From Patescibacteria group bacterium (GTDB taxonomy: Bacteria > Patescibacteriota > Minisyncoccia > Phycocordibacterales > UBA9973), in NCBI GenBank assembly GCA_040390725.1, contig JAZJXT010000002.1:28450-92449 (forward strand): a stretch of DNA of 64,000 nucleotides, read 5' to 3'. Made by a program: the position numbers and the translations under genes. This document shows positions 7,318 through 49,179 of this stretch, piece by piece. The notes beneath the pieces are model-generated. The model made no database searches, was not told the origin of the DNA, and saw only the letters and a program-made list of their open reading frames with translations. The number at the start of each line of letters is the position of its first letter. Position 1 is the first letter of the stretch.

Positions 7318-7356
7318 GCCCCCAGATATGCCGTGACATATCAGGGGTCTTTTTCT
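7318..7356 (+). terminator. rho-independent terminator
   Basis: gcccccagatatg-ccgtgac-catatcaggggtc stem (one mismatch) followed by tttttctt. Confidence 0.6.
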
Positions 7357-7439
7357 TGTTTATGAGTATATATTATCATATGTAAAAAATGATGCAAGTT
7401 TTTGCTTTATAATTAAAATTTTGTTATTATTTTATTCAT

Positions 7440-7925
7440 ATGGATGAATCTTGGGTGCCACAACCGTTAAAAGAAGATAATAGACCTGATTATATCAAAA
7501 ATAATGAGGTCAGTACTGGCGAAATAGAATATGGCGGGAAAAAATATTTTTTTACTGTTTTAAAAAAGGAAGTGGGACCAAAAACATTACCTGGTTTTTT
7601 AGGTAAAGATGGCGAACATTTTTTTATTTCAGAAGAAGCGCCTGAAAAATTTAGAGTCTTACAATTAACTCATGAGATTATTGAGTTTACAGAGCTAGAA
7701 GGCAAAAAGGGGAGATGCCTTGAAGCATTAAAACGGGAACTTTTATTAGTACCAGATGAGATTAGAAAGGAATACATTGAATATCGAAGAAATCTTTTTA
7801 ATAATTTAATTCAATATTACAAGAAATTATTAGAAGATAAAAAATTAGAACAGAAAATAAAAGAAAGTTATGAAGATATTGAGAAGGAAATGAAGGGAAG
7901 CTATGAGTATTTGTGTACTTTATAA
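7440..7925 (+). CDS. hypothetical protein (161 aa)
   Basis: ORF only; charged C-terminal half. Confidence 0.4.
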   Translation: MDESWVPQPLKEDNRPDYIKNNEVSTGEIEYGGKKYFFTVLKKEVGPKTLPGFLGKDGEHFFISEEAPEKFRVLQLTHEIIEFTELEGKKGRCLEALKRELLLVPDEIRKEYIEYRRNLFNNLIQYYKKLLEDKKLEQKIKESYEDIEKEMKGSYEYLCTL

Positions 7926-19215: not shown

Positions 19216-19216
19216 A

Positions 19217-23210: not shown

Positions 23211-23975
23211 ATGAAGAAGATAGTTATAGGCAATTGGAAAATGAATCCGCTTTCTAGTAAAGAAGCGGAGAAAATTTTTTCCGGTATTGTTAAAAATTTA
23301 AAAGTTAAAAAAACAGAGGTGGTTATTTGCCCGCCGTTTTTGTATTTGGAAAAGCTGGGGAAAATTTCAAAGAAAGTTTCCTTGGGAGCACAGAATGCTT
23401 TTACAGAAGATGGTGGTGCGTACACTGGGGAAGTTTCTGTAAAAATGCTCGCGAATATGGGTGTGAAGTATGTGATATTAGGACATTCAGAAAGGCGCAG
23501 TCCGCCGGCCGGCGGAGGGGAATCTAATCAAGATGTAAATAAAAAAATAAAAGCATCACTATCTGTTGGGCTTATTCCGGTAGTTTGTATTGGAGAAAAA
23601 GAACGGGATGAAAATCACGAGTATTTGAATTTTGTGCGTGAACAAGTCGAGCAAGGTTTTACAGGAATTTCCAAGAATTTAATTTCAAATATTATTATTG
23701 CTTATGAGCCTGTATGGGCTATCGGCAAGAATGCAAAGAGAGAGGCGTCTCCTGCGGAGTTTCGCGAGATGAGTATTTTTATCAGGAAAATTTTGTCTGA
23801 TAAATTTGGCGCAAAAAATATTGAAAAAATCAGAATTATTTACGGTGGTTCCGCGCATCCGGAAAATGTTGCTGGATTTTTAGCAGAAGGCGCGGATGGT
23901 TTTTTGCCAGGCAGGGATAGTTTGGATCCGAAGAAGTTTTTATCAATTGTTAATACAACAGAAAGTATCTTTTAA
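23211..23975 (+). CDS. tpiA: triosephosphate isomerase
   Basis: IGNWKMN, ILGHSERR and AYEPVWAIG motifs. Confidence 0.9.
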   Translation: MKKIVIGNWKMNPLSSKEAEKIFSGIVKNLKVKKTEVVICPPFLYLEKLGKISKKVSLGAQNAFTEDGGAYTGEVSVKMLANMGVKYVILGHSERRSPPAGGGESNQDVNKKIKASLSVGLIPVVCIGEKERDENHEYLNFVREQVEQGFTGISKNLISNIIIAYEPVWAIGKNAKREASPAEFREMSIFIRKILSDKFGAKNIEKIRIIYGGSAHPENVAGFLAEGADGFLPGRDSLDPKKFLSIVNTTESIF

Positions 23976-24069
23976 AAACCGCACATAATTTTCTGCTGAA
24001 AATTTGCTATGTTCGGCTCGTCAGCCTGCGCAATGCTTTTTAAAAAATACTTTCTGTTTTCTTAAAGTT

Positions 24070-25218
24070 ATGAATAGTATAAAAAGTTTAAAAAACATAA
24101 AAGGTAAAAAAGTTCTTGTGAGAGTTGATTTCAATGTGCCTGTTTTGAACGGTAAGGTGGAAGACGATTTCCGAATACAAAAAGCATTGCCAACAATTAA
24201 ATTTTTACAGAAAAAAGGCGCGAAAGTTATTTTAATAACGCACTTGGGTAAAGGCGGGGAAACTCTTTTGCCGGTGGAAAAAGTTTTGAATAAATATGTA
24301 AAAGCTGTTTTTGTGGCTGATATTGTGGGAGAAAAAGCAGAAAATGCTGTGGATGCTATGAAAAATGGTGATGTAATTTTGTTAGAAAATTTACGTAATA
24401 ATGACGGCGAGAAAAATTGTGATAAAACTTTTGCGAAAAGTTTGGCAAAATTCGGGGATATTTATGTGAATGAAGCCTTTCCTGTGTCACACAGAGCTGA
24501 TGCTTCTATTGTTTTGTTGCCGAAGCTTTTGCCGGCGTATGCGGGTTTGCAGTTAGAAAATGAAGTGAAAAATCTTTCGAAAGTTTCCAAGAGCGTAAAG
24601 CATCCATTTCTTTTTATTTTAGGCGGTGCGAAATTTTCTACCAAGATGCCTTTGATTAAAAAATATTTAAAAACTGCGGACAATATTTTTGTTGGCGGAG
24701 CATTAGCGAATGATTTTTTGAAAGCGAAGGGTTATGAAGTTGGCAAATCTTTGACGGACAATGGTGATTTTGGAATTAAGAAATTTATAAATAATAAAAA
24801 ACTTATTTTACCGGTGGATGCTGTAGTCACCTCACCCCAGCCCTCTCCTTATAAAGGAGAGGGGGAATTCGTAAATAAAAAAGCAAGTGAAGTAAAAAAA
24901 GATGAAATTATTTTAGATGTCGGCAGTGAATCAGTAAAAAATTTAGCACCGATTATTAAAAAAGCAAAAATGATTCTCTGGAATGGGCCTTTGGGAAAAT
25001 ATGAAGAAAAAGAATGCAGAGCGACAAAAGAAGTTTTGAAAATGGTGATGAATTCAAAAGCTCAAGTGACTATAGGTGGCGGAGACATAGTCGCTGTTTT
25101 ATCTCAAATGAAAATTAATACTGACAAAAGAAAAAATTTATTTGTATCTACTGGCGGAGGAGCAACTCTCGACTTTCTTGCTAATGGCACCTTGCCAGGA
25201 ATTAAAGCGTTAAAATAA
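24070..25218 (+). CDS. pgk: phosphoglycerate kinase
   Basis: VLVRVDFNVP and ILWNGPLG motifs. Start moved to the ATG at 24070 (MNSIKSLKNIKGKKVLVRVDFNVP). Contains the in-frame palindromic insert at 24828-24865. Confidence 0.9.
   Translation: MNSIKSLKNIKGKKVLVRVDFNVPVLNGKVEDDFRIQKALPTIKFLQKKGAKVILITHLGKGGETLLPVEKVLNKYVKAVFVADIVGEKAENAVDAMKNGDVILLENLRNNDGEKNCDKTFAKSLAKFGDIYVNEAFPVSHRADASIVLLPKLLPAYAGLQLENEVKNLSKVSKSVKHPFLFILGGAKFSTKMPLIKKYLKTADNIFVGGALANDFLKAKGYEVGKSLTDNGDFGIKKFINNKKLILPVDAVVTSPQPSPYKGEGEFVNKKASEVKKDEIILDVGSESVKNLAPIIKKAKMILWNGPLGKYEEKECRATKEVLKMVMNSKAQVTIGGGDIVAVLSQMKINTDKRKNLFVSTGGGATLDFLANGTLPGIKALK
24828..24865 (+). repeat. RPE-like palindromic element, copy 1 (in-frame within pgk; encodes TSPQPSPYKGEGE)
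   Basis: cacctcaccccagccctctccttataaaggagaggggg; core is a perfect 10-bp inverted repeat ccctctcctt/aaggagaggg. Identical reverse-complement copy at 62919-62955 and a 2-mismatch copy at 57294-57329. Confidence 0.6.
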
Positions 25219-34838: not shown

Positions 34839-35261
34839 ATGAAAATAAAAGTTAAAAAATTAAAAGATGGGGCGAAGTTACCGACTTATCATCATCCGGG
34901 TGATGTCGGTATGGATATGTATGCCATGGAGGAAATTATTGTTGGCCCTGGTGAGCACGCGCGTATATGGCACGGTTTTGCTTTGGAATTCCCGATAGGA
35001 TATGGCGCATTGGTCATGGATAAGGGCAGTATTTCAAAGGCAGGATTGCATACTATGGGGGGAGTTTTTGATGCCGGGTATAGGGGTGAATACAATACGC
35101 ATTTGGTAAATTTATCTGACAAGCCTTATACTATAGAAGTGGGGGATAAAGTTTCGCAACTTGTGATCACACCTATTGTTGTTGCTGACTTAGAAGAAGT
35201 TGATTCACTTAGCGAGTCGGCTCGCGGTGAGGGAAGGTTTGGGAGTACGGGTAAAAAATAA
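34839..35261 (+). CDS. dut: dUTP diphosphatase
   Basis: Five dUTPase motifs including C-terminal RGEGRFGSTG. Confidence 0.9.
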   Translation: MKIKVKKLKDGAKLPTYHHPGDVGMDMYAMEEIIVGPGEHARIWHGFALEFPIGYGALVMDKGSISKAGLHTMGGVFDAGYRGEYNTHLVNLSDKPYTIEVGDKVSQLVITPIVVADLEEVDSLSESARGEGRFGSTGKK

Positions 35262-35262
35262 A

Positions 35263-37050
35263 ATGAGTATAAAAAATAAGCTAGAAAATTTAATAAAAGA
35301 TGCGTTAAAAAAGTTAGAAATGAATTCGCCAGACGGCGAAGTTAATTTTGTCGTAGAACATCCGGAAGATTTTAAGAATGGGGATTACTCTACGAATGTG
35401 GCATTGGTTTATGCTAAGAAATTAAAAATGAAACCTGTTGATTTGGCGGAGAAAATTTTAGCAGAACTTTATGAAGATACAGATGAAAAGGGCATTAAGG
35501 GTGTGGAAAATATAGAGATAGCCGGCGCGGGGTTTATAAATTTTTATTTAACACGTGAATTTTTCAGTGATTCTATAAAAGATATTTTACACAAGAATGA
35601 AGACTGGGGCAGGAATAATTTATTGGAAGGAAAAAAAGTAATGGTGGAATACACTCAGCCGAATCCTTTCAAGCCTTTTCACATAGGGCATTTGATGAGC
35701 AATGCCATCGGAGAGTCAGTTTCGAGAATTGTAGAATTCTCCGGCGCGAAAACTATCCGTGCGAATTATCAGGGTGATGTTGGTCCGCATATTGCGAAAG
35801 CGATTTATGGGATTATGAAAGACCCTGAGTACTTAGAGGCAAGACCTCTCAGTAGAGGTCTTGCCTCTAAGTCGGCATCTTGGATTGGGGAGTGTTATTC
35901 AAAAGGCAGTGATTTGTATGACAATGATCCGGAAGCAAAAAAAGAAATTGATGTAATAAATAAAAAAGTTTACGACAAGAGCGATGAAGAAATAAATAAA
36001 GTTTATGATTGGGGGAGGAAAGTCACCCTCGAAGCATTTGAAGAACTTTATAAAATTCTCGGCACGAAATTCGACTATTATTTTTTTGAAAGCGAGATGG
36101 CACCGATAGGTGAAAAAATTGTCCGCGCAAATGTGCCGAATGTTTTTGAAGAATCCGACCCCACACCAGAGCAAGCTCAGTACGGGGCAAGAGGCGCTAT
36201 TATTTTTCGTGCTGAGAAGTATAACCCTAAATTGCATACGCGAGTGTTCTTAACTTCACAAGGCATACCGCTTTATGAGACGAAGGAAATAGGTTTGACG
36301 ATGACGAAATTTGAAAAAGAAAATCCTGATATTTCTATTGTTGATACAGCTATTGAGCAAGGCGAATATATGAAAGTTGTTCAGCAGGCTATCGCACTCA
36401 TGCATCCGGAATTGGAAAAGAAAATGTTGCATATCACGCACGGTATGATGCGCCTCGCATCGGGCAAAATGTCTTCCCGAAAAGGTAACGTAGTCACAGG
36501 TGAGTCATTGTTGCGAGATTCTATGGATGTCGTATTGGAAAAAATCCAAGATAGAGATTTTACCGAAGAAGAAAAGAAAAAAGTCTCAGAAGTCGTCGGC
36601 GTGTCGGCGCTCAAATATTCTATTTTGCGTTCTTCTGTCGGCTCGGATATTGTTTATGATTTTGATAAATCAATTTCGTTTGAAGGGGATTCCGGCCCAT
36701 ATTTACAATATTCCGCTATCCGCGCGAAATCAATCCTCGCAAAAGCCAAAAGTGAAAATTTGGAGGCTAAACCTCCAAAAGAAGTTCCAGAACAAATTTC
36801 AGATTTAGAAAAAATTCTTTATCGTTTCCCCGAAGTTGTCGCGCGCTCATATGAAGACCTCGAACCGCACAATATCGCCACATATTTGACCGAGCTTTCA
36901 TCATCCTTCAATTCTTTTTACGCCAATACACAAATCTTAAACAATGAAGATAAATTTTCTTCATATTATTTAGCACTCACCAAAGCATTTTTCATCACAA
37001 TGCAAAACGGCCTTTGGCTTTTGGGAATTAAATTGCCGGAGAGGATGTAA
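35263..37050 (+). CDS. argS: arginyl-tRNA synthetase
   Basis: Start at the ATG at 35263 (MSIKNKLENL), 1 nt after the dut stop. PNPFKPFHIGHLMSNAIG (HIGH), DALR-type C-terminus. Confidence 0.9.
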   Translation: MSIKNKLENLIKDALKKLEMNSPDGEVNFVVEHPEDFKNGDYSTNVALVYAKKLKMKPVDLAEKILAELYEDTDEKGIKGVENIEIAGAGFINFYLTREFFSDSIKDILHKNEDWGRNNLLEGKKVMVEYTQPNPFKPFHIGHLMSNAIGESVSRIVEFSGAKTIRANYQGDVGPHIAKAIYGIMKDPEYLEARPLSRGLASKSASWIGECYSKGSDLYDNDPEAKKEIDVINKKVYDKSDEEINKVYDWGRKVTLEAFEELYKILGTKFDYYFFESEMAPIGEKIVRANVPNVFEESDPTPEQAQYGARGAIIFRAEKYNPKLHTRVFLTSQGIPLYETKEIGLTMTKFEKENPDISIVDTAIEQGEYMKVVQQAIALMHPELEKKMLHITHGMMRLASGKMSSRKGNVVTGESLLRDSMDVVLEKIQDRDFTEEEKKKVSEVVGVSALKYSILRSSVGSDIVYDFDKSISFEGDSGPYLQYSAIRAKSILAKAKSENLEAKPPKEVPEQISDLEKILYRFPEVVARSYEDLEPHNIATYLTELSSSFNSFYANTQILNNEDKFSSYYLALTKAFFITMQNGLWLLGIKLPERM

Positions 37051-37604: not shown

Positions 37605-39230
37605 ATGACTCAAGCAGAAGCACTGAATATTTTGAAGACGGGGGCGAATGTTTTTTTGACTGGGGAACCTGGTGCGGGGAAAAGTTATACGATAAATTCT
37701 TTTGTGGAATATTTGCGCGAGAGGGATATAGAGCCGGCGATAACAGCGAGCACGGGAATAGCCGCGACGCATATAGGCGGGATGACTATACATTCTTGGA
37801 GCGGTATAGGCATCAGGAAAAAACTCGATCAATATGATTTGGATAAAATAGCGAGCAGTGAATATATTGCGCGCAGGGTGCGGAGGACGCGCGTTTTGAT
37901 AATTGATGAAATTTCAATGCTGACGGCGGACATGCTCGATATGATAGACGCGGTGTGTAGGGAAGTGAAACAAAGCTCCGAGCCTTTCGGCGGAATGCAG
38001 ATAGTTTTGGTGGGAGATTTTTTCCAACTTCCGCCGATTGTGAAAAATGATACGGACGAAAAACAAAAAACTCTTTTAGTGGAAAAGAAGAAGAGCGTTT
38101 TTGCTTATGATTCAAATGCTTGGGCTCGGGCGGGACTGGTAATGTGCTATCTGACGGAACAACACAGGCAGGATGACAAAGATTTCTTGGATTTTCTTTC
38201 CGCTATTCGCGCGGATAAAATAAATGACGAGCATATGGAATACGTGACGGCGCGACAGACTATTTTAGACGATGTGCCGGATAATGTGACGAAATTATTC
38301 ACGCATAATTTTAATGTGGACACGGTGAATAATATGGAATTGGAAAAAATTACGGAAGAGAAAAGAAAATTCGAAATGATTTCCGAAGGACGCGACGCAT
38401 TGGTGATGGCATTGAAAAAAGGATGCCTCTCGCCGGAGAATTTGGAACTCAAAATAGGCGCGGTGGTGATGTGCACGAAAAATAATCAAAAAGAAGGATA
38501 TGTGAACGGCACATTGGGCATAGTGGAAGATTTTGACGAATTCACCGGCTATCCGATAATTAAAAAAAGAAATGGCAAAAGTATAAATGTTTCTCCGCTT
38601 GACTGGGTGGTGGAAGAAAATGGAAAAATTTTGGCGATGATTTCGCAAGTGCCTTTGCGCCTGGCATGGGCGATGACGGTGCATAAAAGCCAAGGGATGT
38701 CGCTCGATGCGGCTATTATGGATTTGTCGCAAGTCTTTGAATACGGGCAGGGGTATGTGGCGCTCTCTCGCGTGCGCAGGCTTTCCGGACTTTATCTTCT
38801 CGGCATAAATGAGCGTGCATTCAAAGTGCATCCGGAAATTTTAGAAAAAGATATTTTCTTTAAAGAGCAATCAGCCGAAGCGGTAAAAGTCTTCGGCAAA
38901 CTTTCCGAAAGTGAACTTCAAAAAATGCATGATAATTTTGTGTTGGCTAGTGGAGGGGAAGTAAAGATAGAGTATAAAAGAGAAGAGCAGATGCGCGCGC
39001 CGAGTACGGCGCGCGCCCTGGATAATTCTGAAAGTTCTCCAGTTAAACCTTTTGAAAAAATAAGAGAACAACACCCCAATGCTTATCGTCCTTGGGATAA
39101 AATACAAGACGAAGAATTAGAAAAATTATTCAGCGAAGGAGTACCAACAGCTGACCTTATGAAAAAATTTGGCAGGAAAAAAGGAGGAATAACTGCCAGA
39201 CTTGAAAAACTTGGTTTAGTTAAATCATGA
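37605..39230 (+). CDS. PIF1/RecD-family ATP-dependent DNA helicase with C-terminal HTH-like tail
   Basis: Walker A GEPGAGKSY, ASTGIAA, DEISML, and the PIF1 signature region. Confidence 0.8.
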   Translation: MTQAEALNILKTGANVFLTGEPGAGKSYTINSFVEYLRERDIEPAITASTGIAATHIGGMTIHSWSGIGIRKKLDQYDLDKIASSEYIARRVRRTRVLIIDEISMLTADMLDMIDAVCREVKQSSEPFGGMQIVLVGDFFQLPPIVKNDTDEKQKTLLVEKKKSVFAYDSNAWARAGLVMCYLTEQHRQDDKDFLDFLSAIRADKINDEHMEYVTARQTILDDVPDNVTKLFTHNFNVDTVNNMELEKITEEKRKFEMISEGRDALVMALKKGCLSPENLELKIGAVVMCTKNNQKEGYVNGTLGIVEDFDEFTGYPIIKKRNGKSINVSPLDWVVEENGKILAMISQVPLRLAWAMTVHKSQGMSLDAAIMDLSQVFEYGQGYVALSRVRRLSGLYLLGINERAFKVHPEILEKDIFFKEQSAEAVKVFGKLSESELQKMHDNFVLASGGEVKIEYKREEQMRAPSTARALDNSESSPVKPFEKIREQHPNAYRPWDKIQDEELEKLFSEGVPTADLMKKFGRKKGGITARLEKLGLVKS

Positions 39231-39243
39231 TTCGTGATATCAT

Positions 39244-39274
39244 TACAACATTATCAATAATGTCATAATGTACA
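39244..39274. promoter_or_regulatory. ACATTAT/ATAATGT palindrome and direct repeats immediately upstream of the ArsR-like regulator (candidate autoregulatory operator)
   Basis: acattat ca ataatgt (39248-39263), then a second ataatgt (39266-39272); 12 nt before the ATG. Confidence 0.35.
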
Positions 39275-39284
39275 AAGTAAAAAT

Positions 39285-39560
39285 ATGAAAAAGGGAATTA
39301 ATTATAAATATTTGGAAAGAATAATAAAAGGCGGAGCTAATCATCGCCGACTCCAAATACTTTTTCTCTTGGAAAAGAATCCGGGCCTGTCTGTGGAGTT
39401 GGTGTCTGAAATGTTGAATGTAAACTTCGTTACCATAGCTAGTCATTTACAGAAATTGCATCACTCCGGTCTTATTACTAAAAAATACATCGGGCGAACA
39501 GTTATTCACGATATCACGCCGAGAGGAAAGAACATTATGACATTATGTAGAATGTTGTAA
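39285..39560 (+). CDS. ArsR/SmtB-family winged-helix transcriptional regulator
   Basis: HRRLQILFLLEKNPGLSVELVSEMLNVNFVTIASHLQKLHHSGLI. Confidence 0.65.
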   Translation: MKKGINYKYLERIIKGGANHRRLQILFLLEKNPGLSVELVSEMLNVNFVTIASHLQKLHHSGLITKKYIGRTVIHDITPRGKNIMTLCRML

Positions 39561-39628
39561 TGTGGATTTTGAAATAGTTATCCCCATATTTCTTTCCCTA
39601 ATTTTCGAGTAAGTTATATAATTTAGCA

Positions 39629-42600
39629 ATGTTCAAAATTAAATACTCGAAGTTTTTGTTTCTATTTTTTACTTTCTCTGTCGCCGTTGGCATTTTTTCT
39701 TTTTCACATCAGGCTTTCGCTTCGACTGTTGTGACTGACGATATTATTGATGATACGACTTGGACTCTGGATGGCAGTCCGTATTTGGTGGATGGTTATG
39801 TGCCTGTTTATTCTACGCTTACCATAGAGCCGGGCGTAGTAGTGCAAAATGGCAGTTTAGATATTTTTGGAACTTTAAAGGCCGAAGGCACGAGCGACCA
39901 GCATATTTCTTTTACTTCATCTATAATTTATTTTGACGGATCTACAGGATCTTCCTTAAAATATATTGATATTTCTCACGAGCATGTCGGGATGTCTTTT
40001 TGGGCTAGTGATGCATCTATTTCAAATATTAATGCGCAGTATAATGATACGGATTTATATATAGAAGGAGGTAGTAGTATTTCTATTTCTGATTCTAGTT
40101 TTTCCAATGCGAAATACGATTCTATTTATATAGAGGACGGTTCTTTGAGTGCAAATAATTTAACAATTGAGGGAGGGTCGCAATATTATGAAGCAGTCCG
40201 GGTGCGGTTTGGTCAGGTTTCTATGGTTGATTCAGTTATTCAAAATATACCTGACGGCGAAGCTTTGGCTGTCGGTAGACTTAGCAATGTAGACCTGGAG
40301 AGAACAAATATTAAAAATGTGGGCAGAGGATTCTGGGTTGATGAGAGTAGTACTACGAATATAAATGATTCTACTTTGGACAACACTTACGTTTACGCTT
40401 TTGCTTGCGCATCTTTTAATGCTGATAATAGTATATTTAAAAATAGTATTTGGGGCGCGATTATTGATTTTGGACAAGGATGTGAATTTAACATTGTAAA
40501 TAGTAAATTTATAAATAATCAAGACGGATTTTATATTTTTAACAATGGAAGTTATCCGGAATCTGTCTACAATATTTCCAATTCTGAAATTTCCGGCAAC
40601 ACACAATACGGAGTTTATTCTCAAGCTTCGTATCCTGTAGATTTTACAAAAACTTGGTGGGGCGATGCATCCGGTCCGCAACATCCGGACTTAAACTCCA
40701 CCGGCCTTGGCAACGCAGTTTCTGATGGCGTCCTTTTTGACCAGTGGTGCAAAAATGAAACTTGTAAAACAAAAACCCCGGTGATAATTATTCCGGGAAT
40801 CTTAGGGTCAATTCTTTCTAAGAATTATGGGGATAGTAGCGAGATGTGGCCGAATATAAATACATTACTCACTTCTTTCTTTGATGGATTTATGGATGAT
40901 TTGGCTTTGCAGGCGGACGGCACCGAAGACCCGGCCATGCCTGTGAGCGTCGGCGATATTTTGCGCAAGGTTGATGTATTGGGTAATACTGTCACAGATA
41001 CTTGGTCAGGACTTATAGATAAATTAACTACATCTGTGATCGGCGGATATGTCGAAGGCACCGACCTTTTTGTTTTTCCTTATGATTGGCGCAAGAGTGA
41101 TGCAGATACAGCAGTGCTTTTGAAAGATAAAATTGACGCAGTGCTGGCACAAACAGGCGCGGAAAAGGTGGATATTATTTCACATTCAATGGGTGGGCTT
41201 ATTGCCGAGAAATATATTGCGGATAACGGTAAAGATAAAATAAATAAATTATTTTTCATAGGCACGCCTCACCTCGGCGCGCCAAAGGCATTCAAGGCTT
41301 TGATGTATGGGGATGATATGAATATAAAATTTGGAAGTTATAGTGTTCTTTATCCAGCTGAAATGAAAAAGATTTCTCAAAATATGCCGTCTGCTTTTGA
41401 TTTATTACCGAGTCGTATTTATGTGGATGGTAATCCGAATGCGAGTATAGTTTTGCCGAATCAATATGTCTATGACGCAGTCGCAGGTAAATGGCTCAAT
41501 TATGATGAGACGAAAAATTTTATGATTACGGATGGCAGGAATGCGGATATTTTTCCACAAGCGGATGACTTGCATCAAGTAGTGGATAAAGTAGACCTGA
41601 GCGGAGTGGATGTTTATAATTTTGCCGGTTGTGGGATGACGAAAACTCTTTCTACCATTACTGCTAAAAAAGAAAAATCCTGGACTTCGCTTTGGCAAAA
41701 AGTCGTGGATGATTATGATTTAGGTTTTACCAATGGTGATGAGACTGTGCCACTGATTTCCGCTTCCGGTCAGTATCAAAATCAATATTTTATAAAAGGC
41801 GCGACTCATTCAGAGTTGCCATCTACTGCTGGAGTGCCAGAAACTATTTTAGCTTTGCTTTCGGGGGATGCTGTTCCTATGGAAACAAATATTTCTACTG
41901 ATAGTAATAATTTCTGTGATGTGACAGGGCGTGTAGTTTCTACACATAGTCCTGTGACTATGCATATTTATGATGACAATGGACACCACACAGGACCGAC
42001 AGATAATGGCGACATAGAATACGGCATTCCTGGTGTGTCGTATGATGTGATAGGGGGTGATGCTTTTGCGTTCTTGCCTGAAGGTGGTAATTATAAAGTA
42101 GTAAATAAAGCGACGGACACGGGAGCGTATGATTTTTATATAAAAGATATAGGGGCGAATGATGCAATAACAAATGAAACATATTTTAATGAAATTCCTC
42201 TCACGAATTTGGCATCAAGTTCAGAAATAGATTTTACACCTTCAGGTAATGATTATAAAATTAAAATGGATCAAGATGGCGATAATACTTTTGAAAAAGA
42301 ATTTGCGCCATCGTCCAGCCTGGGTGCAACGCAAGCAAATGATTTAACTGCGCCGGAAACTACAGCGAGTGTCGCAGGCAGGAATCTTTCTTTTTCTTCG
42401 ACTGATGAAAATTCCGGAGTATTAAAAACAGAGTATTCTATTGATGATGGTGTTAGTTGGGTTTTATATAATTCTGCATTCAATGCATCAGGAAAAACTG
42501 TGAAATATTTTTCTACTGATAAGGCTGGCAATATTGAGAGTATAAAAGAAATAATAGTGCCGAAACGTCATACTGCGTATGTTGAAGATGTAGTGGAAGA

Positions 42601-42958
42601 CCCTAAGCCGGTTGAAAATCAAGAAGTCGCTCATTCTTCAGAATGCAGTGGGTGTAATGTTTTATCTCAAAATCCTGTTGAAATAACTCCTATTGCAAAG
42701 GAAATTGTTGCCGTGGCTACAGTAACATCGGATAAAATAATTATTCCCGAGCAGAAAAAAGTTTTATCTAAAAATCAAAAAACTATTGTCAAATCTGAGC
42801 AAGTTTTTAAAGCTAGCAAGGAGGTGGCAAAAAATGCTAAAATAGAAGTATTGCCGGAAATGATTACGGCGTCAGCCATAAATGCCGACAATAGCGCAGG
42901 ATTTTGGAGCAGAGTCGGGAATTTTATTAAAAGCATATTTTACAGAAAGAAAAAATAA
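39629..42958 (+). CDS. large secreted protein (1109 aa): parallel beta-helix repeats + lipase/esterase (alpha/beta-hydrolase) domain + Ig-like 'DKAGN' module
   Basis: Signal peptide ending HQAFA|ST. Beta-helix-type repeats (residues ~60-330). Lipase motifs PVIIIPGILGS, IISHSMGGLIAEKY (GxSxG), GTPHLGAP. C-terminal YSIDDGVSWVLY...STDKAGNIE. Confidence 0.7.
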   Translation: MFKIKYSKFLFLFFTFSVAVGIFSFSHQAFASTVVTDDIIDDTTWTLDGSPYLVDGYVPVYSTLTIEPGVVVQNGSLDIFGTLKAEGTSDQHISFTSSIIYFDGSTGSSLKYIDISHEHVGMSFWASDASISNINAQYNDTDLYIEGGSSISISDSSFSNAKYDSIYIEDGSLSANNLTIEGGSQYYEAVRVRFGQVSMVDSVIQNIPDGEALAVGRLSNVDLERTNIKNVGRGFWVDESSTTNINDSTLDNTYVYAFACASFNADNSIFKNSIWGAIIDFGQGCEFNIVNSKFINNQDGFYIFNNGSYPESVYNISNSEISGNTQYGVYSQASYPVDFTKTWWGDASGPQHPDLNSTGLGNAVSDGVLFDQWCKNETCKTKTPVIIIPGILGSILSKNYGDSSEMWPNINTLLTSFFDGFMDDLALQADGTEDPAMPVSVGDILRKVDVLGNTVTDTWSGLIDKLTTSVIGGYVEGTDLFVFPYDWRKSDADTAVLLKDKIDAVLAQTGAEKVDIISHSMGGLIAEKYIADNGKDKINKLFFIGTPHLGAPKAFKALMYGDDMNIKFGSYSVLYPAEMKKISQNMPSAFDLLPSRIYVDGNPNASIVLPNQYVYDAVAGKWLNYDETKNFMITDGRNADIFPQADDLHQVVDKVDLSGVDVYNFAGCGMTKTLSTITAKKEKSWTSLWQKVVDDYDLGFTNGDETVPLISASGQYQNQYFIKGATHSELPSTAGVPETILALLSGDAVPMETNISTDSNNFCDVTGRVVSTHSPVTMHIYDDNGHHTGPTDNGDIEYGIPGVSYDVIGGDAFAFLPEGGNYKVVNKATDTGAYDFYIKDIGANDAITNETYFNEIPLTNLASSSEIDFTPSGNDYKIKMDQDGDNTFEKEFAPSSSLGATQANDLTAPETTASVAGRNLSFSSTDENSGVLKTEYSIDDGVSWVLYNSAFNASGKTVKYFSTDKAGNIESIKEIIVPKRHTAYVEDVVEDPKPVENQEVAHSSECSGCNVLSQNPVEITPIAKEIVAVATVTSDKIIIPEQKKVLSKNQKTIVKSEQVFKASKEVAKNAKIEVLPEMITASAINADNSAGFWSRVGNFIKSIFYRKKK

Positions 42959-42962
42959 AAAC

Positions 42963-43310
42963 ATGAAAGACCAAATAAATAATTTTTTTCATACGGACAA
43001 ATGGTGGGGGAAGACCATTTTTATAATTTTGATTTATGCAGTTTATTGGTGCGTGTTTTATGGAGTTTGGTTTTTAATTCCACCTGATAATTTTGATAAA
43101 AATACTGATATAAGTGGAATTTTGTTTTTAATACTTAATTTAGCAGTTGTGCCTATTATTAGTTTTTTCATTCCGTATTTTATAAAAAAACTTTTTACGA
43201 TAAATAAAGTAGTATTGTATGTCTTACATAGTTTTCTTTTATTAATATCTGTTGCATTATTTATATTTTTAGCTATTATCTCAGCTTTATCTCATATTCA
43301 AATTGGTTAA
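42963..43310 (+). CDS. small polytopic membrane protein
   Basis: Start at the ATG at 42963 (MKDQINNFFHTDKWW); three hydrophobic segments. Confidence 0.45.
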   Translation: MKDQINNFFHTDKWWGKTIFIILIYAVYWCVFYGVWFLIPPDNFDKNTDISGILFLILNLAVVPIISFFIPYFIKKLFTINKVVLYVLHSFLLLISVALFIFLAIISALSHIQIG

Positions 43311-43393
43311 TTCGTAAGAACAGTCTCTGTGCGGTTAATAAAATGCTTATTTACCAAAATACCCAGTAAATACTGGATATTTTGTATTTTTAC

Positions 43394-43422
43394 TTGACTT
43401 TTAGGTTGTAAGGTGCTATACT
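43394..43422 (+). promoter_or_regulatory. sigma70-type promoter TTGACT-N17-TATACT
   Basis: ttgact (43394-43399), 17-nt spacer, tatact (43417-43422); ~145-nt leader before the lipoprotein ATG at 43569. Confidence 0.5.
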
Positions 43423-43568
43423 TTGCATAGTATTTTGCTCGTTGAAAAACATATTGATATTTTCCCTATATTAACTAAGTTCACTATTAAATTAGCGATT
43501 TCAGTTAATACAGGGAAATGCCGAACACCCTTTTCCAAAGTAGGCACTTATGTCAATTTCATACACCA

Positions 43569-44168
43569 ATGAAAAAATTCATTTTAATTTCAACCGTGGC
43601 TTTCTTTATGGTTCTGGCTTTAACAAGTTGTTCAGATAATAAAGAAGAAAAATCAGTAAAACAGGAGGCACTTGCTGTGGGGGTAGTAAAAACAGAAACC
43701 CCTAAGGTTTCTGTTTCAGAAATATCCTCAAGCGAATTACTTTCAAAAATTGATACTTCAAAAATTAAAACCTTCGATGACTATTACGCTTTGAAGCAAA
43801 AACTTTTTGACGAGTATTATGCATTAAAGCAAGAGTCATTCGATGATTATTACAGCAATAAACATCGTGCTTTTGATCAGTATTGGACTAAAAAACAAAA
43901 TGCTTTGATGGTTGTTCGTGAAAAACATAATTCAAAGTATCTTGAATGGTTGGATACTGAAAAGATGAGTAGGTATGATAAGCAGATGGTAATTGAAAAA
44001 TCACCTGAGTTTGCTGATTATATTTTGGTTGAAAAAACTGAATATAAAAAGTATGAAGAAATTGAAAAATCTTTATACGTCGCATATGAGCAAATCGAGC
44101 AGGGTAGTTATAAAGAATATACCCAAAAAGAACAGTTAGCTTATAAGGCATATCAGATTAATCATTGA
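43569..44168 (+). CDS. lipoprotein with FDDYYALKQ repeats
   Basis: Lipobox LALTS|C; repeated FDDYYALKQKLFDEYYALKQESFDDYYSNK; Tyr/Glu/Lys-rich. Confidence 0.55.
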   Translation: MKKFILISTVAFFMVLALTSCSDNKEEKSVKQEALAVGVVKTETPKVSVSEISSSELLSKIDTSKIKTFDDYYALKQKLFDEYYALKQESFDDYYSNKHRAFDQYWTKKQNALMVVREKHNSKYLEWLDTEKMSRYDKQMVIEKSPEFADYILVEKTEYKKYEEIEKSLYVAYEQIEQGSYKEYTQKEQLAYKAYQINH

Positions 44169-44184
44169 GGAAATTCTCAAGAAG

Positions 44185-44217
44185 TAGCCTACCATTTATT
44201 GGTAGGCTCTTTTTTTT
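44185..44217 (+). terminator. rho-independent terminator
   Basis: agcctacc atttatt ggtaggct followed by cttttttttt. Confidence 0.65.
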
Positions 44218-44315
44218 GCTATTGCAGTTATGGTATTAGCTCGGTTTTTGTTCTTTTAATAATGATTTGTGGGAAGAAATGAGCCGTTGGCGGGGGAATT
44301 TGTTATAATAAAAAT

Positions 44316-44903
44316 ATGGAAATTTTAAAAATTATTTTTGCCGTTTTAGGAACAGTCGTTTTTATTTTTGGCTATGTTCCGTATTTTCGTGATATATTTA
44401 AAAAGCGTACAAAGCCTCACGCGTACACTTGGTTGATTTGGTCTATCACTCAAGGCACGGCTGCCGCAGGAATTTTATATGGAGGCGGAGGTGTCGGCGC
44501 TACCCAATTAATCGTCGGCTTGATTCTTGTTTTTTTGGTTTTTGTTTTATCTCTTAAATATGGAACAAAAAATATCACTTGGCATGACACGGTCCTATTG
44601 ATTTTAGCCTTGATTGCAGTATTTGTCTGGTGGCAATTACACGATGCCGCGCTCTCTATGTTAATGGTTACAGGCATAGACGCGCTCGGATATATTCCAA
44701 GCTATAGAAAATCTTGGCAAAATCCCTGGGATGAAACTTTATCTTCTTGGCTTATTTTTTCTGTCGGAAATGTGTTTGCGATAATGGCTCTTGAAAAATA
44801 TAATCTTTTAACCTTTTCCTATCTTTTAATGAGCATAACTTTGAATATAATTATGATTTTTTTGTGCGCATGGCGAAGACGGAGGATACCAAAGCCGGCG
44901 TAG
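44316..44903 (+). CDS. polytopic membrane protein (195 aa), unknown function
   Basis: 5-6 predicted TM segments; Gly-rich loop GILYGGGGVGA. Confidence 0.45.
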   Translation: MEILKIIFAVLGTVVFIFGYVPYFRDIFKKRTKPHAYTWLIWSITQGTAAAGILYGGGGVGATQLIVGLILVFLVFVLSLKYGTKNITWHDTVLLILALIAVFVWWQLHDAALSMLMVTGIDALGYIPSYRKSWQNPWDETLSSWLIFSVGNVFAIMALEKYNLLTFSYLLMSITLNIIMIFLCAWRRRRIPKPA

Positions 44904-44977
44904 ATTTAAAAAACTCGCATCTTTTTAATGTAAATAATCATTTGTAATTCAGCCCTATTTTGTGCTATATTTCAGTA

Positions 44978-47900
44978 ATGTCTGAAGAAAAAAATAATAA
45001 AAATACAAAATCAATAAATGCAGAGAGGGAGGAGAAAATTCTGAAATTCTGGGCGGAAAATAAAATTTTTGAAAAATCTATTGAAAAAGAAGCGCCGAAG
45101 GGGAATTATGTTTTTTATGATGGTCCGCCTTTTGCAACGGGGTTGCCACACTACGGGCATATCTTGGGAAGCACTGTGAAAGATGTCATCGGGCGGTATC
45201 AGACGATGCGTGGATTCCGTGTGCCTAGGCGTTGGGGTTGGGATTGTCACGGTTTGCCTATTGAAAATATCGTGGAAAAAGATTTGGGAATTTCCGGACG
45301 GAAAGCCATTGAAGAATTTGGTATTGATAAATTTACCGAGCACGCGCGGAGTAAAGTGCTGACTTATGTGGAAGAATGGCGAAAGACTGTGAACCGCATG
45401 GGGCGATGGGTGGATTTTGATAATTCTTATAAGACAATGGACAATACTTTTATTGAAAGTGTGTGGTGGGCGCTCGGCGAATTGCATAAAAAAGAATTGT
45501 TGTATGAGGGTGTGCGAGTACTCGCGTATTGTCCGAGGTGTGAGACGCCTATCGCAAATTCTGAAATTGCGATGGATAATAGTTATAAAGATATTACTGA
45601 TATTTCTGTGTACGTGAAGTTTAAGATAATCACCGACCAAGAAATTTCTAGGTCCTCGGGTCGCGTCGCTTCTGAGGTTTTTCCTGCGGAAAAACAAACG
45701 AAGCTAGCTCAACCAGACGCTAAAAATTCCTTGGTCGGCTCGTATCTTTTAGCTTGGACGACGACGCCGTGGTCTTTGCCGGGGGATACTGCTCTAGCGA
45801 TAAATAAAAATATAAAATATGTGAAAGTTGAACACAATGGCGAATTTTATATTTTGGCGGAAGATAGAATAAAATTCGTGCCGACATTGAAAGATATAGA
45901 ATTTAAAAAAGGAGAAAATATGTGGGATGTAAATGCGGAGGAACTTATTGGTAAAAGTTACGAACCGCCTTTTGATTATTATAAAAATGCAGACTTGCCG
46001 CACAAAGAAAATATTTGGAAAATTTGGCATGCAGATTTTGTGACTATTGATGCGGGTACGGGTATAGCGCACGAGGCGCCGGCTTTTGGTGAGGAAGATA
46101 TGAACTTGGCAAAGGAAAATAATATTCCTTTTATTCGACATGTCGAGCCGAACGGAGTTTTCTCAAAAGAAGTGACGGATTTCGCTGGAACAAAAGTAAA
46201 ACCAAAAGAAGACCATCAGTCGGGAGATGTTTTGATAATAAAATATTTAGCAGGGAAAGGTTTGCTTTTTGCGAAAGAAAAAATAATCCACTCGTATCCG
46301 CATTGTTATAGATGTGATACGCCTTTGCTTTATTACGCTTTGCCGTCGTGGTTTGTAAATATTCAAAAAGTAAAAAATGATTTGCTTGAAAAAGCGCAAG
46401 AGATGAACTGGATTCCGGCGCATTTAAAAGACGGACGTTTTAAAAACATAATGGAAAACGCGCCGGATTGGACTATTTCTAGGAATAGATATTGGGCAAG
46501 TCCTTTGCCTATTTGGAAATCAGAAAGTGGAAAAATAATGATGGTGAGTTCACTCGAAGATTTGAGAAATAAAACAAAAAAATCAGGAAATAAATTTTTC
46601 GTAATGCGTCACGGGGAAGCAGATCATAACGTGAAACAGCTTTGCAGTAGTGGACCAAATGACCCGCATCATTTGACGGAAAATGGAAAAGCAAAGGCAA
46701 AAGAATCCGCCCAGAAATTAAAAAATGAAAAAATAGACTATATATATGTATCGCCATTTGTGCGCACAAAAGAAACAGCAGAAATTGTCGCAAAAGAAAT
46801 AGGTTTATCCTCGGATAAAATAATTATAGATAATCGTTTACATGAAGTAAATTGGGGGGATTTTGATGGTAAAACTTTTGCAGAAGGCATGGCTTTTGTT
46901 AAAGAAAAAATGATGACCGCAGATGTACCATTGCCAAATGGCGAGTGTTGGCAGGATGTGAAAAATAGAGTGGGGGATTGTATTTACGACGTTGATTCAA
47001 AACATAAAAATTCTAATATTTTATTTGTCGGGCATGGAGGCACATTGGAAATCTTGCCAACTATTGCAAAAGGTTTTAACCAAACAGAAACTATGCAAGA
47101 AGTAATGCGGACAGTAGGAGGGAAAGTTTATGTCCCTGGAGAATTTTATGAATTAAATTTTGTTTCCATACCGCATAATGCAAAATATGAACTCGACCTG
47201 CACCGACCTTATATAGATGCAATAATTTTGGCAGACGAAAAAGGAGAAGAGTATAAAAGAATTCCTGAAGTTATCGATTGTTGGTTTGAGTCCGGCTCGA
47301 TGCCTTTTGCGCAGGACCATTTTCCATTTGAGAATCCAAATTGGCAGAAAGAAAATTTCCCCGCAGGTTTCGTGGCGGAATACATAGCGCAGACGAGGAC
47401 ATGGTTTTACTATACGCATGCAATTTCTACGATGCTCTTTGAGCATGCGCCATTTAAAAATGTCGTGACCACTGGCACAGTGCTCGCGGAAGACGGCAGT
47501 AAAATGTCTAAATCAAAAAATAATTTCCCTGACCCTTGGATATTGTTTGAAAAATACGGCGTGGATGCTTTGCGTTTTTATTTGATGTCTAGTCCTTTGA
47601 TGAAAGGGGAAGATGTGAACTTCTCTGAAAAATCTGTGCAGGAAATCTCCAGTAAAATAATAGGCCGACTCGATAATGTTTTTGCTTTTTATGAATTATA
47701 CAGAGACAGAAATTTAGAAAGTGAAAATGCAAAACCTGAAAGTAAAAATGTTTTGGATATTTGGATTCTATCTCGATTGGAACAATTGATTTCTGAAGCA
47801 ACAAAAAATATGGAAGCTTATGATTTGGCTTTGGCGACGCGACCTTTTGAATTATTTATGGAAGACCTTTCGACTTGGTATTTGCGTCGTTCACGCGAGA

Positions 47901-48568
47901 GATTAAAAGATGGTGACAAAGATGCCAGACAAACTTTATATTTTGTTTTGAAAAATACTGTAAAATTACTCGCTCCTTTTACACCGTTTATTTCGGAAGA
48001 TATTTGGGCAAAATTAAGAAACGAAAACGATGTAGAGAGTGTGCATTTAGCTGAATGGCCAGAAGTATCAGTGGTTAATATTTCTACGGATGAAATGCAA
48101 ATTGCAAAGATGCAGATTGTAAGAAATTTTGTTTCTCTTGGCTTAAAAGAAAGACAAAAAGCGGGAATCCCTGTCAGGCAACCGCTTAAATCAATCAGTG
48201 TTTCAAATATGGTTTTAGAAAGTTATTACAAAGATCTTATTAAAGATGAGTTGAATGTAAAAGAAGTTTTGGAAATATCTTTAAATGAAGGTGAAGTAAA
48301 ACTTGATACAGAAATAACTCCAGAATTAAAAATGGAAGGGGATTATCGCGAGCTAGTGCGAGCTGTGCAAGACATGCGAAAAGCAAAAGGTTTAATGCCG
48401 AGCGATATTATTACGTTGACTATTGATACTGATACAAAAGGTCAAGAAATAATAAATAAATTTAAAGAAGAATTCTTGAAAGTTGTCGGCGCGAAAGAAA
48501 TAATGTTTGGCGAAAATGATGGAATGGAAGTAAAAATTGATTCTCTAATTTTTAAGATTAAAATATAA
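44978..48568 (+). CDS. ileS: isoleucyl-tRNA synthetase carrying an internal histidine-phosphatase-like domain
   Basis: PPFATGLPHYGHILG (HIGH), KMSKSKNN, WTISRNRYWASPLPIW, zinc knuckles CPRCETP/CYRCDTP. ATG at 44978. Residues ~520-740 form an RHGE...HGG phosphatase-like insertion. Confidence 0.9.
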   Translation: MSEEKNNKNTKSINAEREEKILKFWAENKIFEKSIEKEAPKGNYVFYDGPPFATGLPHYGHILGSTVKDVIGRYQTMRGFRVPRRWGWDCHGLPIENIVEKDLGISGRKAIEEFGIDKFTEHARSKVLTYVEEWRKTVNRMGRWVDFDNSYKTMDNTFIESVWWALGELHKKELLYEGVRVLAYCPRCETPIANSEIAMDNSYKDITDISVYVKFKIITDQEISRSSGRVASEVFPAEKQTKLAQPDAKNSLVGSYLLAWTTTPWSLPGDTALAINKNIKYVKVEHNGEFYILAEDRIKFVPTLKDIEFKKGENMWDVNAEELIGKSYEPPFDYYKNADLPHKENIWKIWHADFVTIDAGTGIAHEAPAFGEEDMNLAKENNIPFIRHVEPNGVFSKEVTDFAGTKVKPKEDHQSGDVLIIKYLAGKGLLFAKEKIIHSYPHCYRCDTPLLYYALPSWFVNIQKVKNDLLEKAQEMNWIPAHLKDGRFKNIMENAPDWTISRNRYWASPLPIWKSESGKIMMVSSLEDLRNKTKKSGNKFFVMRHGEADHNVKQLCSSGPNDPHHLTENGKAKAKESAQKLKNEKIDYIYVSPFVRTKETAEIVAKEIGLSSDKIIIDNRLHEVNWGDFDGKTFAEGMAFVKEKMMTADVPLPNGECWQDVKNRVGDCIYDVDSKHKNSNILFVGHGGTLEILPTIAKGFNQTETMQEVMRTVGGKVYVPGEFYELNFVSIPHNAKYELDLHRPYIDAIILADEKGEEYKRIPEVIDCWFESGSMPFAQDHFPFENPNWQKENFPAGFVAEYIAQTRTWFYYTHAISTMLFEHAPFKNVVTTGTVLAEDGSKMSKSKNNFPDPWILFEKYGVDALRFYLMSSPLMKGEDVNFSEKSVQEISSKIIGRLDNVFAFYELYRDRNLESENAKPESKNVLDIWILSRLEQLISEATKNMEAYDLALATRPFELFMEDLSTWYLRRSRERLKDGDKDARQTLYFVLKNTVKLLAPFTPFISEDIWAKLRNENDVESVHLAEWPEVSVVNISTDEMQIAKMQIVRNFVSLGLKERQKAGIPVRQPLKSISVSNMVLESYYKDLIKDELNVKEVLEISLNEGEVKLDTEITPELKMEGDYRELVRAVQDMRKAKGLMPSDIITLTIDTDTKGQEIINKFKEEFLKVVGAKEIMFGENDGMEVKIDSLIFKIKI

Positions 48569-48570: not shown

Positions 48571-49179
48571 ATGAAAAAATTAGTACTTTTTGATTTTGAT
48601 GGGGTGTTGGTGGACACTTTGAATATTTGCTACACCATTAGTAGTGAAGTAAATGAGTGTATGGATATAGAAGAATATAAAAAGTTTTTTGAAGTTAATA
48701 TAAATGATGCACTAAGAAAAGATGGAAGCAAGAGGATACTTAATCCTAATTTTCATGAAAGATTTTTAGATAATATACGGAAAGTAAAAATCCCGGAAAT
48801 TTTGAAAGTGACATTAAGAGATTTATCTAAAAAATATAAAATTTTTATTGTGTCTTCAACTTCTACGGAAACTTTAAAACATGTATTAGCTATTGAAGAG
48901 GTGTCTCAATATTTTACAGAGCTATTGGGTAGAGATGTTCACGCAAGTAAAGTTGTAAAAACAAAAATGCTTTTGGAAAAATATAATGTTAAGCCCACAG
49001 ATGCGGTATTTATTACCGATACTACTGGGGACATAAAGGAGGCAAGAGAGTGCGAGGTAGAATCCATCGCGGTGACTTGGGGTTTTCATGAAGAGGAAAC
49101 ATTAAAAAAAGCCAATCCGGCAAAAATAATAAACAATCCGGAATACTTACTCGGTGCGATAGAAGATATGTTAAAATAA
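48571..49179 (+). CDS. HAD-superfamily hydrolase (phosphatase)
   Basis: LVLFDFDGVLVDT motif I; motif II/III pattern (VSST...TDTTGD). Confidence 0.8.
   Translation: MKKLVLFDFDGVLVDTLNICYTISSEVNECMDIEEYKKFFEVNINDALRKDGSKRILNPNFHERFLDNIRKVKIPEILKVTLRDLSKKYKIFIVSSTSTETLKHVLAIEEVSQYFTELLGRDVHASKVVKTKMLLEKYNVKPTDAVFITDTTGDIKEARECEVESIAVTWGFHEEETLKKANPAKIINNPEYLLGAIEDMLK

Follow-up and report, generated by a model that had tools for sequence, protein, structure and literature searches.

The window analysed here is a stretch of 64,000 nucleotides from a Patescibacteria group bacterium (assembly GCA_040390725.1, contig JAZJXT010000002.1). At 44960..48568 on the forward strand (+), the strand of all features of this gene given below, it carries an ileS gene for a type-2 (eukaryote/archaea-like) isoleucyl-tRNA synthetase (IleRS2) with a histidine phosphatase nested inside it. 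The open reading frame (ORF) is unbroken and yields 1202 residues from a TTG start, or 1196 residues in the NCBI model, which begins at the ATG at 44978 and is identical to MES2023408.1. Pfam profiles revealed tRNA-synt_1 (PF00133, E = 2e-127) in two stretches separated by His_Phos_1 (PF00300), together with the anticodon-binding domain Anticodon_1 (PF08264, residues 933-1078) and the C-terminal domain DUF5915 (PF19302, residues 1112-1202), the last two spanning 47756..48565. The protein scores 837.3 bits against TIGR00392, the NCBIfam ileS equivalog, which has a cut-off of 621.4. Both class I signatures are intact and invariant in the alignment of relatives: HYGH, the HIGH signature, at residues 64-67 (45149..45160), and KMSKS at residues 848-852 (47501..47515), the latter also located by alignment to the solved IleRS2 8c8u and by a motif check. 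The CP1 editing domain is retained, in a region that aligns with 8c8u residues 216-464, and its threonine-rich WTTTPW (residues 266-271, 45755..45772) and its zinc cysteines are likewise invariant. The C-terminus is of type 2, as indicated by PF19302 and by the top solved matches, which are IleRS2 and eukaryotic IleRS. With these motifs intact, the protein looks like a functional housekeeping type-2 IleRS. Scores of 678-705 bits against the MupA/MupB models (NF000257/NF000258; cut-off 1900) show that it is not an acquired resistance allele and is related to these proteins as an IleRS2. We also noted a low-complexity segment of ~35 residues, TDQEISRSSGRVASEVFPAEKQTKLAQPDAKNSLV, at the entry to the editing domain (45632-45739, residues ~225-260), which is missing from 8c8u, varies in length in relatives and is predicted to be disordered (predicted local distance difference test, pLDDT, <50).

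An initial annotation, made from the letters and the ORF translations of this stretch, had proposed a histidine phosphatase signature inside the synthetase at 46540-47200, and our searches bear this out. The hidden Markov model (HMM) of PF00300 matched residues 547-707 (46598..47080) with E = 1.4e-34 and 119.9 bits for the whole protein, and with 124.4 bits for the insert alone (46541-47200), far above the gathering cut-off of 21.7. The match covers profile positions 2-162 of 194, and the folded domain, on the Pfam, NCBIfam and AlphaFold2 results, extends to about residue 735 (nucleotide 47164). All the motifs that had been quoted are present: DWTISRNRYWASPLPIW at residues 503-519, RHGEADHN at 550-557, SPFVRTKETAE at 598-608, VGHGG at 690-694 and KRIPEVIDCWFESGS at 766-780. 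Alignment with IleRS orthologues showed a true insertion of ~200 residues, not a normal connective peptide. The extra segment comprises residues ~527-738 (nucleotides 46538-47173), so the position first assigned to it was right, although its frame was off by one base (the in-frame slice is 46541-47200). It is negligibly probable that the arrangement stems from a chimeric assembly or from two genes joined by a frameshift, and we exclude this: the reading frame runs on unbroken, with IleRS sequence again in frame after the insert, the identical protein occurs in two independent assemblies (NCBI and Logan), and the architecture recurs in hundreds of homologues on separate contigs.

The insert aligns with PhoE of B. 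stearothermophilus (1ebb/1h2e) at E = 1e-11 with all catalytic positions paired, namely RHG, the second arginine in 'VRTKETAE', the glutamate in 'HEVNWGD' and the second histidine in 'VGHGG'. These correspond to R550-H551 of the RHG motif (46607..46612), of which H551 is the predicted phospho-accepting nucleophile, to R602, the second arginine of the phosphate pocket (46763..46765), to E629, the predicted general acid (46844..46846), and to H692, the second catalytic histidine (47033..47035). With the query and its 120 best relatives (121 sequences) aligned in MAFFT, R550, H551, G552, S598, R602 and H692 are 100% conserved, followed by E629 (99%), R670 (98%) and N557 (94%); the claim that the catalytic residues are intact therefore stands. 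Most remaining positions of the insert reach a consensus of only 20-60%, and variability is highest in the cap region. On average, the insert is 38% identical to the query, as against 87% for the N-terminal core, 75% for the editing/CP region and 80% for the second Rossmann half. Catalytic residues that stay fixed while the rest of the insert drifts form the pattern expected of an enzyme selected for catalysis rather than of a packed structural element, and on this conservation the nested phosphatase is apparently active.

A domain-only AlphaFold2 model (pLDDT 92.3; predicted template modelling score, pTM, 0.89) superposes on PspA, CobC and PhoE and shows the alpha/beta fold of the superfamily. 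Foldseek searches of the PDB returned matches with probability 1.0 and a root-mean-square deviation of 2.0-2.9 Å to 4ij6, 1h2e and 6s2q. The nearest folds are capped small-molecule phosphatases of ~200 residues (2-3 Å over ~175-185 columns); they include PspA (4ij6/4ij5, the best match), CobC (6e4b/6nru), a mycobacterial hydrolase (6s2q), PhoE (1h2e), a riboflavin-pathway HFP (9mmh), GpgP (4pz9) and Rv3214. None of the NCBIfam equivalogs CobC, dPGM, PspA, SixA and GpmB reached its cut-off: CobC (TIGR03162) scored 86.7-91.2 bits against 162.9, dPGM_arch (NF038349) 83-86 against 225, pgm_1 (TIGR01258) 34 against 81.7, PspA (NF045917) 66-70 against 350 and SixA (TIGR00249) 45-49 against 74.5. By profile and motif, the nested domain is a member of the branch-1 histidine phosphatase superfamily, in the PhoE/CobC-like group, and has no named equivalog.

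The insertion lies in the CP3 subdomain. Residues 526-739 of the query correspond to residues 464-480 of the chain in 8c8u, the closest solved IleRS2 (E = 4e-210), a net gain of ~200 residues. In 8c8u this stretch is bounded by CxxC...CxxC ('WECEGCQH ... LTCPVCSGEMKR') and forms a zinc-knuckle tip of ~15 residues; a similarly short connection is found in the insert-less IleRS2 of candidate phyla radiation (CPR) bacteria and DPANN archaea (41 loci). The counterpart in the window reads 'WKSESGK ... ILADEKGEEYKR', and all four CP3 zinc cysteines have been lost. Along the protein, the CP2-CP3 linker DWTISRNRYWASPLPIW (residues 503-519, 46466..46516) is followed by a proximal CP3 stalk (residues 520-546, 46517..46597), formerly the first half of the zinc knuckle and now with its cysteines replaced (KSESGK), which ends in a clade-specific KKSGN-K-Y junction that is at least 95% conserved. 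Beyond the phosphatase, a distal CP3 stalk (residues 736-765, 47165..47254) consists of PHN-x-x-YELDLHRPYID and then ILADEKGEEY, at the position of the CxxC in zinc-knuckle IleRS2, and KRIPEVIDCWFESGS (residues 766-780, 47255..47299), identified by motif check and alignment to 8c8u, marks the resumption of the second half of the Rossmann fold.

CP3 comprises residues 473-534 of the Candida IleRS and 459-526 of the yeast enzyme; it is structurally different in each solved IleRS, and the zinc motif is found in the Thermus type only (PMC7191050). The yeast CP2-3 linker ARDWNVSRNRYWG, the counterpart of DWTISRNRYWASPLPIW, lines the pocket in which reveromycin A mimics the CCA end of the tRNA (PMC7955072). 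In human IARS1, the UNE-L domain of LARS1 docks on the catalytic-domain/CP3 surface without clashing with tRNA-Ile (PMC13439101), which argues that the CP3 surface is exposed and permissive. The phosphatase thus occupies a peripheral, variable and solvent-exposed subdomain that emerges, in sequence, beside the active-site cleft, and not the cleft itself. Its placement in the catalytic core by the initial annotation holds in the sense that CP3 belongs to the set of insertions in the Rossmann fold, and fails for the active site proper.

The fusion is shared by related genomes. All 120 best matches among 5.8 billion clustered proteins carry both PF00133 and PF00300 (61-70% identity, 1144-1316 residues). 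Their source names are Patescibacteria, Paceibacterota, Nomurabacteria, Pacebacteria and Parcubacteria, and one of them, UniRef100_A0A0G0DUT0, comes from the 2015 GW2011 CPR genomes. A scan of GTDB species representatives gave 80 IleRS2 loci, which we classed by BLAST with anchor sequences and by an HMM of the insert. About 28 loci have one insert at the CP3 site (Nomurabacteria, Paceibacteria, Taylorbacteria and others), and two loci from other IleRS lineages, L024 and L025 (Peribacteria), also have one. Two tandem His_Phos_1 copies are found in L031, L032, L034, L041, L049 and L071 (Peregrinibacteria/Peribacteria), and 41 loci have no insert (Falkow-, Morani-, Kaiser-, Uhr- and Magasanikbacteria and DPANN archaea). 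In the two-copy loci both copies retain R-H, R, E and H, and the distal half of CP3 has been replaced; in the Peregrinibacteria the copies are divergent paralogues, marked by 'VTHAD' in the first (d1) and 'THGG' in the second (d2). An exhaustive search of representatives also uncovered proteins with three and four repeats (P0198, P0125), and P0160 is another of the tandem arrays of 2-4 domains. The zinc-knuckle cysteines persist around the insert in L025 and in the class-A-type locus L020, and a 260-residue fragment (P0268) has His_Phos_1 flanked by CxxxxC ... CxxC ('FFECDNAQCK ... CKLLCKKCNTGH'), that is, an insert in an intact zinc knuckle. L087 and L063 have neither zinc cysteines nor insert.

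In a neighbour-joining tree of the IleRS core (861 columns, insert region left out, 100 bootstraps), the Peregrinibacteria form a clade in 100/100 replicates, L020 groups with insert-less proteins in 92/100 and L025 with other insert-less proteins in 97/100. A tree of the domain itself (164 columns) supports shallow clades alone and not the deep branching. Judged from these sequences, the patchy distribution must reflect several gains, several losses or recombination. Two candidate observations were set aside during the survey. What looked like a secondary loss from L073 is a gap in the scaffold (a run of N) and not a deletion of the insert. In P0101 (1316 residues), an HD segment (PF01966/PF13023) takes the place of the normal C-terminus at residues 1117-1184; we rejected it as a feature of the family, as it is seen on a single Logan contig beside a degraded His_Phos match and probably arose as an artefact of fusion or assembly. 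Separately, P0243 (1395 residues) carries, besides its His_Phos_1 insert, a second insertion of ~190 residues (residues ~725-925) that starts 30 residues downstream, right after CWFESGSMPYAS. It contains a Walker A motif (GACGAGKT) and has weak similarity to AAA_18/AAA_33, APS-kinase, shikimate-kinase and Pnkp1, which would make a kinase-like and phosphatase pair within one synthetase. As a clue to RNA end healing we discarded it, because the matches (APS, shikimate, Pnkp1) are weak and generic to kinases.

A six-frame search of the loci with the insert HMM identified free-standing orthologues of the nested domain. In the Staskawiczbacteria L061 and L065, a separate His_Phos_1 gene (190-213 residues) lies 5 nucleotides upstream of an insert-less ileS whose product keeps the CP3 zinc-knuckle cysteines. 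These free-standing genes score 163-165 bits on the insert HMM, equal to the range of real inserts. In locus coordinates, the Staskawiczbacteria orthologues are at 4010-4618 (L061), 3935-4576 (L065), 5001-5561 (L083) and 5001-5609 (L084), and the free-standing family comprises at least 120 clusters with 56-83% identity. The gene order argS, phosphatase, ileS, x, recO is found in L083 and L084 (with a partial copy in L085). L081 and L082, of one Staskawiczbacteria lineage, have the same order, except that two small ORFs and a toxin-antitoxin pair (YafQ-like toxin, RHH antitoxin) separate the phosphatase gene from ileS (5678-7686). In L087 a free-standing phosphatase adjoins ileS on the opposite strand; this ileS (2682-5609, -) is called as two ORFs of 412 and 554 residues with a break near the CP1/CP2 boundary, and either is a split IleRS or reflects a frameshift or an error of sequencing. 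P0181, a free-standing relative at greater distance (45% identity to the insert in the window), sits between argS and a convergent insert-less ileS, and another, P0184, is not near ileS.

Insert-bearing loci share much of this neighbourhood: argS lies upstream in 18/26 and recO downstream in 19/26, and recO, a DUF11-like gene and a gene for a class II aminoacyl-tRNA synthetase (aaRS) are found downstream of insert-bearing ileS in 16-19/26 loci. No free-standing copy was found within 4 kb of any of these 26 loci. In the window, argS (35200-37050) and ileS are 7.9 kb apart, as against ~0.9 kb or less in relatives. The block at 37605-44903, which is absent from relatives, encodes a Pif1-like helicase, a protein of 1109 residues with LCAT/alpha-beta-hydrolase and beta-helix parts, and three small ORFs, one of them for a membrane protein. 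Three nucleotides past the ileS stop, at 48571-49179 (+), begins a gene for a HAD-family hydrolase (HAD_2, E = 6e-19), a second phosphatase-type enzyme in an apparent shared operon. We considered it as a functional partner and now treat it as incidental, since none of the 26 related insert-bearing loci has it downstream of ileS, where recO comes next instead.

We propose that the chain combines two independent enzymes, a usual IleRS and an active small-molecule phosphatase that derives from a neighbouring gene and became nested at the tip of CP3, where other IleRS2 hold a small zinc knuckle. We favour this reading because it needs the fewest assumptions, and on balance consider it probable. 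The PhoE/CobC/PspA-like domain would hydrolyse phosphomonoesters with phospho-H551 as the intermediate; R550, R602 and H692 would make up the phosphate pocket, and E629 would serve as the acid. Judging by the fold type, its substrate is probably a small phosphorylated metabolite or nucleotide. The simplest reading of the loci is that a separate gene was nested into CP3, that the zinc ligands were then lost and that the domain was later duplicated in some lineages. We infer this direction from the zinc knuckle, because the regrowth of four cysteines after excision of the domain is implausible, which argues that the separate gene is the older state. The series would start with the order argS, phosphatase, ileS with a zinc-knuckle CP3, as in Staskawiczbacteria, and pass through a phosphatase nested in an intact zinc knuckle (L020, L025) to forms in which the zinc ligands are lost and the phosphatase makes up the body of CP3 (the protein in the window and its whole clade), with tandem amplification to 2-4 copies as a last stage (Peregrinibacteria and others). 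Nesting would enforce 1:1 co-expression and co-localization with IleRS. Tight geometric coupling to the aminoacylation site would not be required, because versions encoded by separate genes and versions with several copies exist.

Several observations sit uneasily with independence of the two enzymes, and they nourish the idea that the phosphatase is mechanistically coupled to IleRS as a further functional site of the synthetase. Insert-bearing IleRS were monophyletic in 0/100 bootstraps of the core tree; the same domain family was thus gained in, or lost from, this one loop repeatedly. This suggests that the covalent linkage itself was selected, which is more than a model of a neutral hitch-hiker predicts. 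The association with ileS has lasted in three formats (operon neighbour, nested and tandem-nested), and among the four aaRS genes in the window IleRS alone carries a phosphatase. The peptides at the junctions, KKSGN before strand 1 and PLPHN-x-x-Y after the domain, are strongly conserved in the 121 sequences, which hints at a fixed rather than a floppy attachment, and the insertion starts 8 residues past the CP2-3 linker that lines the CCA-end pocket. The free-standing proteins of Staskawiczbacteria are very basic (isoelectric point, pI, ~10; net charge +15 to +21), which is unexpected for a simple metabolite phosphatase; at +8 to +11 per 100 residues, where the ArgRS and IleRS beside them have +0.5 to +2.8, their charge resembles that of ribosomal proteins and is compatible with binding of RNA or IleRS. 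The full-length AlphaFold2 model (pTM 0.52, core pLDDT <50 in many segments) is too poor to position the phosphatase pocket relative to the synthetic site, and offers no usable geometry for the packing near the editing or aminoacylation site that the initial annotation had raised. Candidate substrates of a coupled enzyme would be a 3'(2')-phosphate or pyrophosphate at the CCA terminus of tRNA-Ile (in end healing or the reversal of toxin modification), a reaction product (AMP, PPi), an inhibitor in phosphorylated form or a phospho-residue of IleRS itself. Against such coupling, the fold is of the capped small-molecule type rather than the open SixA/Sts type, the cap region is the most variable part, 2-4 tandem copies cannot all face one site and the separate-gene version acts without a tether. 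The docking surface at CD/CP3 of human IARS1 lies off the path of the tRNA (PMC13439101). Basic charge as a sign of RNA binding is suggestive only, as other free-standing relatives are acidic and so are the nested domains (pI 5.6). Free-standing relatives that do not adjoin ileS exist as well. There is no obvious reason for IleRS alone to need a phosphatase, and we know of no RNA-end phosphatase in this branch of the superfamily. We therefore regard mechanistic coupling as unlikely. The repeated entry into the CP3 loop in at least four IleRS lineages, together with the operon-partner form, also leads to a narrower proposal, which we hold to be similarly doubtful: that the linkage to IleRS was itself selected and the phosphatase acts on a phospho-substrate tied to aminoacylation. 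It may, for example, remove a 3'-phosphate or pyrophosphate from the CCA terminus of tRNA-Ile, or hydrolyse a product or inhibitor at the entrance to the active site. If so, it would be a new kind of aaRS catalytic site and would give a PhoE-type histidine phosphatase its first role linked to RNA or translation.

Two further explanations were weighed. The domain could be mainly structural or regulatory, either as a CP3 scaffold that replaced the zinc knuckle or as a sensor of a phospho-ligand that tunes IleRS allosterically, with turnover irrelevant. The zinc ligands were lost exactly at the site of the domain, which has become the body of CP3; in the tandem forms the distal CP3 half has been replaced as well, and conservation of the catalytic residues would be equally expected of a ligand-binding sensor. 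A structural role sits poorly, however, with a catalytic set that is almost completely conserved at an insert identity of ~38% and is kept in both tandem copies; L020 and L025 have both insert and zinc knuckle, so that the insert was not acquired as a replacement, and L087 and L063 do without either. We judge a structural or sensory role improbable. Slightly more remote still is the suggestion that a core metabolic enzyme with no other gene in the genome, such as a cofactor-dependent phosphoglycerate mutase (PGM) or a phosphoserine phosphatase, is merely encoded inside ileS in the form of this domain. The window contains tpiA and pgk (23211-25218) and glyA, which indicates that lower glycolysis and serine metabolism are present, with no PGM gene seen in its 64 kb; the domain has partial NCBIfam matches to dPGM_arch and PspA, and PspA is its best structural match. 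All equivalog scores are nevertheless far below their cut-offs, and the motifs after the catalytic glutamate and histidine are of the PhoE type and not of the mutase type. The C-terminal tail is lacking, and 2-4 tandem copies would be odd for a glycolytic enzyme.

A link to anti-phage defence was rejected, as no PADLOC match was found, and no tRNA gene or Rfam element bearing on the nested domain was found in the 64 kb. Two ORFs of 2061 residues (11187-17372, +) and 497 residues (9601-11094, +) have no Pfam match at E <= 1e-5 and lie just upstream of type IV pilus genes (T2SSE, 17464-19215; T2SSF, 19148-20434). At 173-4324 (+), a gene for the large subunit of carbamoyl-phosphate synthase is followed by one for aspartate/ornithine carbamoyltransferase; steps of de novo pyrimidine or arginine synthesis are not usually expected in the reduced genomes of Patescibacteria.

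Aminoacyl-tRNA synthetases are among the most conserved enzymes known, and an unrelated, apparently active enzyme nested in the catalytic fold of one of them is, editing domains aside, very unusual. The full text of the literature searched holds no description of a histidine phosphatase in IleRS, and neither a 2026 survey of 96,219 IleRS architectures nor a 2026 survey of domain insertions mentions one. The architecture is real, widespread and undescribed in that literature, while the sequences are already public, in UniProt since the CPR genomes of 2015. The arrangement is not rare: the nested form is the standard version of an essential enzyme across a very large clade of Patescibacteria. 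Public records call these proteins 'class I tRNA ligase family protein' or 'isoleucine--tRNA ligase', labels that hide the second enzyme. The natural series of a separate gene, a domain nested with the zinc knuckle, a domain nested without it and tandem copies allows a direct test of how a domain insertion evolves. A phosphatase coupled to tRNA charging would mean that ultra-small symbionts possess a new layer of quality control or repair in translation; an uncoupled one would offer a clean case of an essential host protein capturing a neighbouring gene, and a handle on a housekeeping phosphatase of uncultured organisms.

Relative to IleRS2 (8c8u/8c8v; also 1ile from T. thermophilus and the yeast/Candida structures 7d5c/6ldk), it belongs to the same family end to end, with HIGH, KMSKS, the CP1 editing domain and its zinc cysteines, and the anticodon and type-2 C-terminal domains. 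It differs in CP3, where a phosphatase of ~200 residues replaces the zinc-knuckle tip of ~15 and the four cysteines are lost. With PhoE, PspA and CobC (1h2e, 4ij5, 6e4b) the insert shares the fold, the full catalytic set and 22-28% identity; unlike them, it is shortened at its C-terminus, is nested in another enzyme and is the equivalog of no named member. It is orthologous to the free-standing phosphatase of Staskawiczbacteria (for example MCX6720809.1, a 'histidine phosphatase family protein'), with which it shares the N-terminal NKYY-x-RHG and C-terminal GE-x-RELN ends, whereas that protein is a separate, strongly basic polypeptide whose partner IleRS keeps its zinc knuckle. A precedent for an IleRS that has an unrelated enzymatic domain and is nonetheless curated as IleRS is ileS_w_GNAT (NF040702), in which the domain is a GNAT and not a phosphatase; the protein in the window scores 303.6 bits against this model (cut-off 1999) and has no GNAT match in Pfam. 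The RNase H/CobC-like acid phosphatase of the Rv2228c type (NF005567), which ranks among the top three NCBIfam phosphatase models for the insert (83-86 bits, below its cut-off of 326), likewise joins a histidine phosphatase to a nucleic-acid enzyme, but as an end-to-end fusion with RNase H rather than as a nested domain. A further parallel in layout is the CP1 editing domain of class Ia synthetases, also a catalytic domain nested in the Rossmann fold that gives a chain two active sites; CP1 occurs universally and works on what the synthetase itself produces, whereas the nested phosphatase is lineage-specific and of an unrelated fold.

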